From IMG/VR virus record IMGVR_UViG_2802429253_000007: 4,004 bases of DNA; one strand, given 5' to 3'. The notes under the pieces are model-generated. The model ran no database searches. It saw nothing but the letters and a program-made list of their open reading frames with translations, and had not been told where the DNA came from. This document shows, piece by piece, positions 1,471-3,743 of the stretch (position 1 is the stretch's first letter; each line of letters starts with the position of its first letter). The translations under genes and the position numbers were made by a program. This DNA comes from a virus. Its lineage: Duplodnaviria; Heunggongvirae; Uroviricota; Caudoviricetes.

Positions 1471-2067
1471 TCACCCCCGCGTGGCGGACATGATGCCCAA
1501 AGGGGTATCGATGATTTCCAGACAGGCGTCGGTCAGCTTTTCCATGCGGTTAAACCAGCCGTTCAGGTATTTGCCCTGGGCGGGTTTTGATTTGATGATG
1601 TCGGCATAAAAGCGGGAACGACGGACAATACAGCGGGCCAGCAACCAGTCCGGGGTGGACAGGCTCACGGCCTTACGGGTACGCGGGCCGATGATGCCGT
1701 CAGCATCCACATCCGCGGCTTCCTGCAAAATTCTGATGGCTTTTTTAACGCCATGCTGAACCGCCGCATCGAACACAAACATCGCCACGCCATCAGGCCA
1801 CTGGTCACATCCGGCAGGCAGCCAGTAATCGCGCCAGTAAATCTGCGCAACCTGTTCGCGGGTTAAGTCCCTGATGCGGGTATCCGGTTTGCCGTCGCCG
1901 TTGACATCGGTTTTGCCGTCAATCACACCGTCGCGGCGGTCAGAAATGCCGTATTTGGTTTCGCCGCCACGGTCAGTGGGGTCATTGACATAAACGCCTT
2001 CGATATCAGGACGCAGAATAAAATTCAGCGCATGTTCAAAGGCCGGGGAGAATTTTTGATTTTCCAT
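1471..2067 (-). CDS. Glycoside hydrolase family 108 lysozyme (endolysin candidate) with C-terminal peptidoglycan-binding (PG_binding_3-like) domain, 198 aa
   Basis: N-terminal motif EGVYVNDPTDRGGETKYGI matches the conserved GH108 catalytic signature; C-terminal DADGIIGPRTRKAV resembles the PG_binding_3 motif. AGGTG lies 5 nt upstream of ATG 2067. There is no N-terminal hydrophobic/SAR segment, so it is presumably cytoplasmic and holin-dependent. Confidence 0.9.
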   Translation of the reverse strand: MENQKFSPAFEHALNFILRPDIEGVYVNDPTDRGGETKYGISDRRDGVIDGKTDVNGDGKPDTRIRDLTREQVAQIYWRDYWLPAGCDQWPDGVAMFVFDAAVQHGVKKAIRILQEAADVDADGIIGPRTRKAVSLSTPDWLLARCIVRRSRFYADIIKSKPAQGKYLNGWFNRMEKLTDACLEIIDTPLGIMSATRG

Positions 2068-2152: not shown

Positions 2153-2602
2153 TTAAGGGCGTCGTGGCGGACGACGAACGGGATGAGGCAGGTTCGGGGA
2201 GGGGTAAAACAAATCCGGCTGGTATTTATTGCGCTCCAGACGTCGCATCCGTTTGATGGCCTTGTAGACGGTTTTATACGTCACTCCGTAACGCTGAACC
2301 AGTTCAGGAATATTATGGCCGTTAAAATCACGCCAGATACGCATATCCCGGACAAGATTCTCCAGAATATTCCCCCTCGGAACATAAACCTGCATCCCGC
2401 CGATATGGCGACAAATCGCCACAACCAGCTCAAGGGAATGAGCAGGGTCTGCGCCAATCCGGGCCAGCTCTTTACGCAGCAGTGCGTTCAGTTCAGAAAG
2501 TAACGCCGGATAAGCGGTGTTTTCCTGGTAATCATGAAGATATTCCAGAACGCTGTCGTCCCGGAGGTCTTCGAATAAATCCTGCTCTTTCATCTGTTTC
2601 AT
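2153..2602 (-). CDS. mor: Mor (middle operon regulator) / Mor-C family transcription activator, 149 aa
   Basis: Translation closely resembles phage Mu Mor as I recall it (DLFEDLRDD..., PALLSELNALLRKELARIGADPAHSLELVVAICRHIGG.QVYVPRG, RDFNGHNIPELVQRYGVTYKTVYKAIKRMRR). ATG at 2602-2600 overlaps the gemA stop (ATGA), the same gemA-mor arrangement as in Mu. It carries a C-terminal Pro/Arg-rich extension. Confidence 0.88.
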   Translation of the reverse strand: MKQMKEQDLFEDLRDDSVLEYLHDYQENTAYPALLSELNALLRKELARIGADPAHSLELVVAICRHIGGMQVYVPRGNILENLVRDMRIWRDFNGHNIPELVQRYGVTYKTVYKAIKRMRRLERNKYQPDLFYPSPNLPHPVRRPPRRP

Positions 2603-3150
2603 ACAGCAATTCTCCCGCTGTTTCGTGCGCGGGCATATGCACTGGTCAGTGCATCATAGCCGCGCAGCTCCCGCCCGGTTTCGCTCACAGGTAAAGGCAC
2701 ACCATGTCGGGCAAAGGCTTCCCGGATGCAGCGCATGTGCCACTGTTTGAGCGTTTCGAGCACAACATGCAACGATTCCCCGTGACACCATGCCAGCGTG
2801 GAAACACCCTGACCGCCATTACGTCTGGCCGTCAGGCGTTCAACGTATTTGTCCAGCGCGGCGTCGCTGATATCGGAGACGAAACCATCAAGAAACATCT
2901 GCTGCCAGATTTTATAAATCTTCTCGCGCGGTGTGACATGCCCCTTAAAGCGACGGCGGGGATGTTTTTTCTGCTTCTTAAAACCGCGCTCTTTCATGGC
3001 ATCGAGCACCTGTTCCAGTTGTGCAACGGACAGCTCGCGGCAACTGGTCTTGCCTGTGCACTGCACCAGAAAGGCGCGGTAAGTGTCATCGTCGAGTTGT
3101 AGATCACGACGGGCGACATGAATTAATTTAATCAGGGATGTGCGATTCAT
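2599..3150 (-). CDS. gemA: GemA / Mu gp16-like protein (DUF1018 family), 183 aa
   Basis: Start placed at ATG 3150 (MNRTSLIK...) because GGAGG lies 7 nt upstream; the track ORF begins 18 codons earlier without an SD. Motif LIKLIHVARRDLQLDDDTYRAFLVQCTGKTSCRELS is characteristic of the Mu gp16/GemA family, and the gene is immediately upstream of and overlapping mor. Confidence 0.85.
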   Translation of the reverse strand: MNRTSLIKLIHVARRDLQLDDDTYRAFLVQCTGKTSCRELSVAQLEQVLDAMKERGFKKQKKHPRRRFKGHVTPREKIYKIWQQMFLDGFVSDISDAALDKYVERLTARRNGGQGVSTLAWCHGESLHVVLETLKQWHMRCIREAFARHGVPLPVSETGRELRGYDALTSAYARARNSGRIAV

Positions 3151-3223: not shown

Positions 3224-3490
3224 ATGAAAAACAGTGAACAGCCTTATGATGTTGCAGGGTATGTCATTGCCTCAAGGTTGCTGATACTCCTTGTCAGAAA
3301 GGGGCTAATTACCGCAGAGGAAGGCAAAACGATCCTCGAAGCCGCAGCAAGCGGAGCGGCAGAGGCTCCGGCATTGAGAACAACGAATAATCCCATCCTG
3401 CAAATATCACAGCTAATCACTGATACCATCAGTTTGTTAGACCAAGATTCTGATGAATATCAAAAGCCTCAGCCATCTGAGCATCCGTAA
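3224..3490 (+). CDS. Candidate small protein (88 aa) encoded opposite to the surrounding operon; hypothetical
   Basis: ATG 3224 preceded by AGAGGAAA (SD with about 8-9 nt spacing, AT-rich spacer). Product is hydrophilic and helix-like (MKNSEQPYDVAGYVIASRLLILLVRKGLITAEEGKTILEAAASGAAEA...). Against it: the 3' end overlaps the minus-strand 104-aa gene by about 60 nt, it contains several rare codons, and a competing minus-strand ORF covers the same DNA. Confidence 0.35.
   Translation: MKNSEQPYDVAGYVIASRLLILLVRKGLITAEEGKTILEAAASGAAEAPALRTTNNPILQISQLITDTISLLDQDSDEYQKPQPSEHP
3244..3429 (-). CDS. Alternative candidate small ORF (61 aa), mutually exclusive with the plus-strand ORF at 3224-3490
   Basis: ATG at 3429-3427 overlaps the stop of the upstream 104-aa gene (TGATG), an arrangement typical of translational coupling. 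No SD; product is Ser/Ala/Val/Leu-rich with almost no charged residues, which could be a small membrane peptide or an antisense shadow. Confidence 0.2.
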   Translation of the reverse strand: MVSVISCDICRMGLFVVLNAGASAAPLAAASRIVLPSSAVISPFLTRSISNLEAMTYPATS

Positions 3491-3743
3491 GAATATCTTT
3501 ATTTGATAGTCCCAGCCTGCGACGAATGTATTCCTCGCGGGCTGCTTCATTTTGTAGCGCCACGGCAGTTTCCACCTGGTTCATTTCACGGTTAATAATG
3601 CTCCGGACTTCTCTGGCGGTGAGGTCATGCTCAATACCATATTTAACGATATCGTGCATACGTTCCAGCATCCTTAAATTAGCCATGACGCCATCAATAT
3701 CAACTGGTGTGAATTTCATTTCTTTTTTCTCTGGTTTATTCAT
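3429..3743 (-). CDS. Hypothetical protein, 104 aa (Mu-like early-region protein of unknown function)
   Basis: ATG at 3743 with GAGGT about 8 nt upstream. Hydrophilic, charged, helix-like translation (MNKPEKKEMKFTPVDIDGVMANLRMLERMHDIVKYG...). Start overlaps the stop of the upstream ORF by 8 nt. No family recognised. Confidence 0.7.
   Translation of the reverse strand: MNKPEKKEMKFTPVDIDGVMANLRMLERMHDIVKYGIEHDLTAREVRSIINREMNQVETAVALQNEAAREEYIRRRLGLSNKDILTDAQMAEAFDIHQNLGLTN

Follow-up and report, generated by a model that had tools for sequence, protein, structure and literature searches.

A putative calcium-binding hairpin inserted into the catalytic domain of a GH108 endolysin from a Mu-like prophage of Escherichia coli

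The endolysin and its Asp-rich loop

The window analyzed here (4,004 nucleotides of the virus record IMGVR_UViG_2802429253_000007) comes from a Mu-like prophage of Escherichia coli, and its lysis module contains an endolysin gene (1471-2067, minus strand). The catalytic domain of the endolysin carries an Asp-rich insertion, the hairpin tip of which is a candidate calcium site. The window was matched in 82 of 5,426 complete E. coli genomes, with a top identity of 97.3%. The encoded protein of 198 residues was assigned as an endolysin by phrog_315 and as a GH108 protein by Pfam and Foldseek. It consisted of a GH108 domain (PF05838, residues 22-106, 84.1 bits against a cut-off of 21.2) followed by a peptidoglycan-binding PG_binding_3 domain (PF09374, residues 110-175, encoded at 1543-1740 on the minus strand, 63.0 bits against a cut-off of 24.6). 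In the prophage of E. coli PSS-15, which is 97% identical, the endolysin is annotated as “glycoside hydrolase family 108 protein”. The protein is an ordinary, previously annotated member of this family, of which coliphage N4 gp61 is the founding member, and its N-acetylmuramidase activity is predicted from family membership. No signal peptide, membrane segment or hydrophobic segment was found at its N-terminus, and in lacking such a segment it resembles an ordinary holin-dependent endolysin.

The loop comprised residues 42-67 (SDRRDGVIDGKTDVNGDGKPDTRIRD; the minus strand of 1864-1944 translates to SDRRDGVIDGKTDVNGDGKPDTRIRDL) and was flanked by GETKYGI (34-41) and LTREQ...IYW (68-78). The translation and the Pfam match confirmed the original prediction, made from the sequence of the window, that this segment lies between these two motifs inside the lysozyme catalytic domain. 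The range first assigned to it, 1867-1941, encodes the 25 residues D43-D67, and the leading Ser42 lies one codon outside (1942-1944). The segment was Asp-rich as described, with 7 Asp in 26 residues versus 14 in the remaining 172, and five of them (46, 50, 54, 58, and 62) recurred with a period of four residues. Three parts could be distinguished. Module 1 (S42-G51, SDRRDGVIDG, 1915-1944, minus strand) was defined by its conservation and a predicted one-turn helix at 43-46. Module 2 (K52-D62, 1882-1914, minus strand) contained the motif Dx[DN]xDGxxD in the hairpin tip D54-V-N56-G-D58-G59-K60-P61-D62, so that the DVNGDG noticed earlier does fit a calcium-loop pattern, here Dx[DN]xDG. A return strand and linker (T63-D67, TRIRD, 1867-1881, minus strand), placed by the structural model and by MAFFT, led to the LTREQ helix and corresponded to the L-D-I-K end of the 11-residue linker in short-loop GH108 proteins.

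Fold and catalytic residues

A structure was predicted by AlphaFold2 with an alignment of 34 sequences, which replaced an unusable single-sequence run (mean predicted local distance difference test, pLDDT, 47.6). The mean pLDDT of the model was 93.6 and its predicted template modeling (TM) score was 0.88; the block means over residues 41-70 were 91, 94, and 96. In the loop, the one-turn helix 43-46 (SDxRD) was followed by coil (47-51), a hairpin and the LTREQ helix, and the β-bridges predicted at 52-53 and 63-64 enclosed the nine-residue tip D54-D62. Foldseek matched the model to Brucella SagA (7DNP) with an E-value of 5.7e-9 and TM scores of 0.73/0.82, and to 2IKB, 6V3Z, 6V40, and 2NR7, all with a probability of 1.00. 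Salmonella TtsA/Sen1395 (6V40, 6V3Z), SagA, and Neisseria NMB1012 (2IKB, 2IS5) share the two-domain fold and the Glu/Asp/Thr catalytic positions of our protein, with significant Pfam and Foldseek matches, but they have 14-20 residues where it has 26, and none contains the Asp/Gly block. Burkholderia AP3gp15 was not counted as a GH108 enzyme, because its paper calls it DUF3380.

The catalytic residues of SagA are Glu17, Asp26, and Thr31 (PMC8334348), and these aligned with E23, D32, and T37 of the endolysin, which delimit the catalytic stretch EGVYVNDPTDRGGET (1957-2001, minus strand). Four residues of SagA, Ile35, Thr39, Tyr65, and Tyr69, touch the fragment of peptidoglycan bound there (PMC8334348); the corresponding residues in the alignment were I41, approximately R45, Y77, and Y81. 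Because of this correspondence, the insertion sits between residues aligned to the substrate contacts of SagA, where it occupies the place of a helix-containing segment.

The insertion and the loop classes of GH108

A search of 1.84 billion protein cluster representatives returned 16,443 matches at E ≤ 0.001. Loops were classified between the GI and LT anchors in 143 full-length sequences from the best 150 of these matches, our protein included. Class A (n = 49) had an 11-residue linker, SKRSYPxLDIK, and class B (n = 44) had about 20 residues beginning with TQRTYDAWR. Class C, to which our protein belongs, had 25 residues with the pattern SDxRDGxxDGxxDxDGDGxxDxxIx and made up about 24% of the sampled representatives (34 of 143). 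The remaining loops were of class D (n = 8), with the EF-hand-like DxNxDGxxDxxD of the 2NR7 type, class E (n = 3), with 18 residues in the form SDxADGxRDGKYxGxxIK, or other kinds (n = 5). MAFFT alignment of class C with class A opened a single clean gap of 14 residues, equivalent to R45-D58. P61 aligned with the Pro that is invariant in 49 of 49 class A linkers, I65-K/R66 aligned with their I-K, and class E appeared as class C less seven residues. Solved GH108 structures were shorter at the loop site by 12 residues in 2IKB (NMB1012), 10 in 6V3Z (Sen1395), and 6 in 7DNP (SagA). Porphyromonas gingivalis PG_0293 (2NR7, class D) was about equally long there and carried YDKDGDGDIDVED. No solved structure represents the class C loop.

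By these alignments, the segment represents an insertion within a short linker, and it characterizes a large subclass rather than this gene in particular. The shorter linker suggested in the original prediction for other GH108 members thus holds for many of them, and the length and Asp pattern are not universal in the family, since classes A and B lack these Asp residues. The idea of an insertion holds for the 14-residue block relative to short-loop members. It fails as a private or recent feature, as the block belongs to an old subclass that spans Gammaproteobacteria and Bacteroidota.

Module 1 (SDxRDGxxDG) was separable, being kept in class E and in phages LIMEzero and Lidtsur without the Dx[DN]xDG hairpin. 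LIMEzero (Pantoea phage, L029 426-953) and Lidtsur (Escherichia phage, L030 426-962) are lytic Autographiviridae, and their GH108 endolysins (segment SDNRDGVRDGMVSGVPGAPGPVPVK in LIMEzero) have, instead of the acidic hairpin, a stretch rich in Gly and Pro (GMVSGVPGAPGPVPVK, or GRACGVPTGLGGTICVPIK, which contains two Cys), a further loop variant at this site. Another insertion of about 12 residues (GNWTGGKVGVGQLKG) was seen in the region of the catalytic GGxT motif of some short-loop GH108 endolysins, including that of Acinetobacter phage IME-AB2 (L028 304-816) and the representatives P0226, P0237, and P0252. At least two sites of the catalytic flap thus vary by insertion.

Conservation and distribution of the class C loop

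The length of the loop was identical in all 120 of the closest relatives (Enterobacterales, 59-98% identity), and the 25-residue form occurred at its exact length in 129 enterobacterial relatives. Eleven residues (D43, R45, D46, G47, D50, G51, D54, G57, D58, P61, and D62) were invariant in 128 of these 129 cluster representatives; the remaining one had Glu at position 62. Position 56 was limited to D, N, or S in the 128, residues that fall in the set accepted at this ligand position in a published motif search (PMC3123361). Among 34 class C representatives with 32-62% identity to our protein (alignment A1), 15 columns were invariant over the whole protein. Six of them lay in the loop (D43, D46, G47, D50, G51, and D54), the catalytic E23, D32, and T37 were also invariant, and D58, G59, and D62 were at least 90% conserved. 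Mean column identity was 68% for the loop (alignment A2, with 8 of 30 loop columns invariant) versus 25% for the whole protein in A1; outside the loop, class C proteins were 37% identical to one another. Class C was chosen by its pattern and these values are partly circular, yet 34 of 37 loops of that length fitted the pattern fully. The peptide motif is clearly not due to chance, because the same length and register recur in 128 of 129 enterobacterial and 34 of 143 divergent representatives.

A second protein search with a class C profile gave nearly the same enterobacterial set and added little diversity. In a scan of one genome per species, the class C loop was found in Pluralibacter, Raoultella, Klebsiella, Serratia, Kluyvera, Aeromonas, Rheinheimera, Alishewanella, Marinomonas, Alteromonadaceae, and metagenome-assembled genomes of Bacteroidota/Bacteroidales. 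Mor, GemA, or TraR neighbors were present at most class C loci, not at all. A tie between the loop class and the Mu-like context was considered and rejected: in Shewanella phage MuM16-2 and Vibrio phage 1.028.O, the syntenic endolysins belong to class A with its short linker, and several class C loci have no Mu-like neighbors.

The relationships among loop classes were analyzed by neighbor-joining over 148 columns with the loop columns removed, in a sample biased by the fact that all sequences were top matches to a class C query. Class B formed a coherent group and classes A and C were intermixed. Of the 34 class C sequences, 16 had a class A sequence as their nearest neighbor (bootstrap range 8-20); outside the loop, mean identity was 37.0% within class C versus 38.2% between C and A. 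As a lead only, this pattern suggests repeated gain or loss of the insertion, or its exchange.

The DNA near-repeat

The DNA of the loop contained the near-direct repeat that had been noticed in the two DGK[TP]D units. On the plus strand, copy 1 (ATCCGGTTTGCCGTC, 1882-1896; reverse complement encoding D58-G-K-P-D62) and copy 2 (ATCGGTTTTGCCGTC, 1906-1920; reverse complement encoding D50-G-K-T-D54) were identical at 13 of 15 positions in codon register and lay 24 nt apart, with GGTTTGCCGTC at 1886-1896 and GGTTTTGCCGTC at 1909-1920. Given the peptides DGKTD and DGKPD and the codon usage of the window, the four shared residues (D, G, K, and D) would all have matching codons with a probability of 0.054, so that the repeat at the DNA level is borderline against chance. 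In 24 homologous loci with the peptide pattern intact, the two 15-nt units agreed at 6/15 to 12/15 of their positions; even at loci where both units encode the peptides of the window, the figure was 10-12/15. Since the identity decays in homologues and the codon coincidence is about 0.05, the DNA repeat is a by-product of the repeated peptide DGKxD and not the trace of a recent duplication. The suggestion that the insertion was built by a short DNA duplication does not hold for a recent event, as the repeated amino acids explain the identity. An ancient origin through the expansion of DG units, a route proposed for such motifs (PMC3123361), is possible and would suit the four-residue Asp period.

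Type of the motif

Dx[DN]xDG is a self-contained calcium-binding loop known in 16 structural contexts (PMC3123361). In the endolysin, D54-x-N56-x-D58-G59-x-x-D62, with hydrophobic residues at 55, 63, and 65, stood at the tip of a confidently predicted β-hairpin. The next acidic residue, D62, followed the motif by two residues (K60-P61), the position of the later ligand in the calcium blade (PMC3123361). The whole calcium-blade pattern D-hydrophobic-[DN]-x-D-G-x-x-D-hydrophobic-x-hydrophobic was present in DVNGDGKPDTRI. The comparison with EF-hands and dockerins made in the original prediction was less apt. Position 12 of the loop is I65 instead of Asp or Glu, with Ile in 126 of 128 relatives, and β-bridges, not helices, are predicted on either side. 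Signs of a dockerin were not found either, as the motif occurs in a single copy without a duplicated segment and the loop had no Pfam Dockerin match. Its only Pfam matches were EF-hand_5 (E 1.9) and a sub-threshold FG-GAP, and a phmmer search of the PDB with 33 residues around the loop gave no match.

The hairpin of the integrin calcium blade, which belongs to the FG-GAP β-propeller (PMC3123361), is a better analogue than the EF-hand or the dockerin, having the same linear pattern and the same spacing of the later ligand. It sits in a propeller, whereas the hairpin of the endolysin is predicted in an α-helical lysozyme-like domain, and the resemblance is most likely a convergent analogy, not homology. 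The loop may function like a calcium blade without being a member of the FG-GAP family, because its host is a helical lysozyme-like domain and the Pfam match is below threshold. The class D loop of 2NR7 has the same position in the domain, is also Asp-rich, and shares the MAFFT columns of the Dx[DN]xDG core. It differs in having an acidic position 12 where our protein has Ile, in the helix-like SLRYLR that precedes it in place of module 1, and in being one residue longer before the LT helix. Class D loops, including 2NR7, matched EF-hand and dockerin models weakly.

Neighboring genes and other features of the window

All the genes of the window that are described in this paragraph lie on the minus strand. 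GemA (2599-3150) and Mor (2153-2602) precede it, and a 75-residue open reading frame (ORF; 1242-1469), a 136-residue membrane protein (848-1258), a 202-residue protein with a weak 3TM-holin match (252-860), and TraR (28-255) follow it. In PSS-15, the series around the endolysin reads Gam, gp16/GemA, a Mor-family activator, the GH108 protein, and four small lysis-region genes, and continues with TraR/DksA, DUF2730, DUF3486, and the large terminase. The 75-residue ORF matched positions 3-75 of the 284-position phrog_2121 profile, and the 202-residue holin-like protein matched positions 91-273 of it. In the window the gene of the 136-residue membrane protein (phrog_12596) stands between them, and in phages MuM16-2 and 1.028.O the homologues of the two proteins adjoin. 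This arrangement suggests that a pair of lysis genes has been split or interrupted, or that the two are fused in other genomes. Co-variation of the loop with the 75-residue gene was considered and rejected, as the gene equally adjoins short-loop endolysins in Mu-like phages of Shewanella and Vibrio.

A hairpin resembling an intrinsic terminator (GAAGCCGG-TAAAT-CCGGCTTT followed by TTTTAT, 2127-2147 on the minus strand plus the next T-run) separates the Mor-family gene, whose 3' end it directly follows, from the endolysin, whose start codon is about 60 nt further on. The gap between these two genes showed no sigma-70-like promoter, as would fit an activator-dependent late promoter. Upstream of GemA, an 88-residue ORF (3224-3490, plus strand; phrog_8747, weak SHOCT-like match) and a 104-residue ORF (3429-3743, minus strand; phrog_6075) converge with an overlap of about 60 nt; both are hypothetical proteins in RefSeq. 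In two E. coli sequences (NZ_CM135148.1 and NZ_CM135147.1), the homologous prophage region is interrupted by the IS21-like insertion sequence ISEc62 (istA/istB), and one small gene covered by the match carries the annotation TatA/TatE-family subunit.

Discussion

We give about an even chance to the reading that the hairpin tip is a divalent-cation site, for Ca2+, that stiffens the catalytic domain. By analogy with the calcium blade, one divalent cation, most likely Ca2+, would be bound by the side chains of D54, N56, and D58, the carbonyl of K60, and the side chain of D62; this assignment of ligands is a prediction. The invariant D43, D46, and D50 of module 1 would form a second site or a structural cap. 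The 11-residue linker and the 14-residue insertion (approximately R45-D58) together make a 25-residue mini-module after the catalytic Thr, which would take the place of the SagA-type helix, and the bound ion would stiffen this section of the N-terminal “flap/hammer” domain. Judged from the alignments, the ligand positions are conserved as expected of a calcium site, with the exception of G59, which is Gly in 80% of close relatives. A second, EF-hand-like loop, Dx[DN]xDGxxDxxD, is present at the same site in other GH108 proteins, including 2NR7, and this loop site seems to tolerate or favor motifs of the Dx[DN]xDG type.

Two experimentally known systems offer parallels. EndoT5 of phage T5, an M15 peptidase, is likewise a phage cell-wall hydrolase of a Gram-negative host, and its mobile loop binds a regulatory Ca2+ that fixes the active conformation and can come from the cell wall (PMC10487532). 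It is, however, a zinc peptidase of unrelated fold, and its calcium dependence is experimental, whereas that of the endolysin is predicted. Tk-subtilisin of Thermococcus kodakarensis has a Dx[DN]xDG insertion of similar length (25 residues) in a catalytic domain whose relatives lack it, and the calcium of this insertion is needed for folding (PMC3123361). Here the differences are another fold, four crystallographic calcium ions, and a narrow phyletic range, in contrast to a loop that is widespread in its family.

Several observations weigh against a cation site. Position 59 was Gly in 103 of 128 enterobacterial representatives and N, K, D, S, A, or E in the other 25, although Gly is reported at this position in every metal-binding hit (PMC3123361). 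The Pfam FG-GAP match of the loop was sub-threshold (E 0.022, 15.1 bits against a cut-off of 22.1). When the PDB was searched with a profile built from 32 class C loops, the best match was integrin α-6 with an E-value of 0.15, which is not significant; in this alignment (DINQDGYPDIAV against DLDGDGkGDVKI) the hydrophobic positions 2, 10, and 12 were shared, and the next match was an esterase with FG-GAP-like repeats. AlphaFold2 models no ions. Module 1 is conserved where module 2 is absent, which implies that part of the Asp conservation has another cause. The structure 2NR7, which was released in 2006 and contains a similar motif, is not named in a 2011 survey of metal-bound Dx[DN]xDG loops; this hints, as a weak inference, that no metal was modeled there. 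The literature searched holds no report of calcium dependence or metal binding by any GH108 enzyme, and within it a putative integrin-like calcium hairpin in this family appears undescribed.

Asp-Gly pairs are classic formers of β-turns, and the conservation of the loop could be purely conformational. The main rival is accordingly a metal-free, turn-rich hairpin, in which these pairs form tight turns and Asx caps and build a rigid acidic protrusion on the catalytic domain. We regard it as somewhat unlikely. The model folds the loop confidently without an ion, and the replacement of G59 in 20% of close relatives and the independence of module 1 would both be natural for such a hairpin, but turn propensity leaves the restriction of position 56 to D, N, or S unexplained. 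The same applies to the invariance of D54, D58, and D62 at the exact spacing 1, 5, 9 and to the hydrophobic pattern at 55, 63, and 65, which is common to calcium blades.

A role of the acidic residues in substrate binding, through contacts with the stem-peptide amino groups or sugar hydroxyls of peptidoglycan, or in positioning the catalytic water, is improbable. The loop does begin soon after the catalytic Thr37, near I41 and R45 where the aligned residues of SagA touch the peptidoglycan fragment (PMC8334348), and module 1 is kept independently of module 2. However, about two thirds of the sampled GH108 proteins (classes A and B) do not have these Asp residues, which therefore cannot be general catalytic residues, and the hairpin tip is predicted as a self-contained loop instead of a lining of the groove. 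Still less probable, in our judgment very much so, is a dockerin-like docking site for a partner, which might be a holin or a protein that regulates or inhibits the endolysin. The dockerin analogy drawn at the outset and the conserved gene of unknown function directly downstream would point this way, but Ile at position 12, the single motif copy, and the missing flanking helices do not agree with a dockerin or an EF-hand, and the 75-residue neighbor does not co-vary with the loop. A recent, lineage-specific insertion without selected function, to which the 13/15 near-repeat and the four-residue periodicity might point, is hardly credible, since the same length and pattern occur in proteins of 32-45% identity (Aeromonas, Alteromonadales, and Bacteroidota), too distant for recent horizontal copies to be the source, where unit identity falls to 6-12/15, and since the codon coincidence has a probability of about 0.05.

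As for what a bound cation would do, the absence of a signal sequence and the presence of a holin-like gene nearby suggest that the endolysin would fold in the low-calcium cytoplasm and meet abundant Ca2+/Mg2+ only at the envelope. The insertion could then be a calcium switch, with an empty loop and a loose or inactive flap in the cytoplasm until, after release through the holin, Ca2+ locks the hairpin and the muramidase would be turned on at the envelope. On this view, the motif would have arisen by DG-unit expansion in the 11-residue linker and have been gained or lost repeatedly. We consider this elaboration rather unlikely. A conditional, calcium-dependent stabilization of an enzyme that is synthesized in the cytoplasm and works at the envelope is conceivable and goes beyond the evidence.

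The putative calcium hairpin of GH108 is of modest importance. If no metal is bound, an ordinary endolysin simply has a conserved structural hairpin. Were calcium bound, the loop would be a clean natural case of a Dx[DN]xDG site acquired by a short insertion, with insertion-free counterparts in the same family. It would also bear on antibacterial use, since buffers with ethylenediaminetetraacetic acid (EDTA) routinely serve to open the outer membrane, and on how a lysozyme made in the cytoplasm stays harmless before lysis. Metal dependence would then extend to about a quarter of the representatives of the family that are nearest to this endolysin, among them endolysins from many Mu-like prophages of Enterobacterales and Aeromonas.

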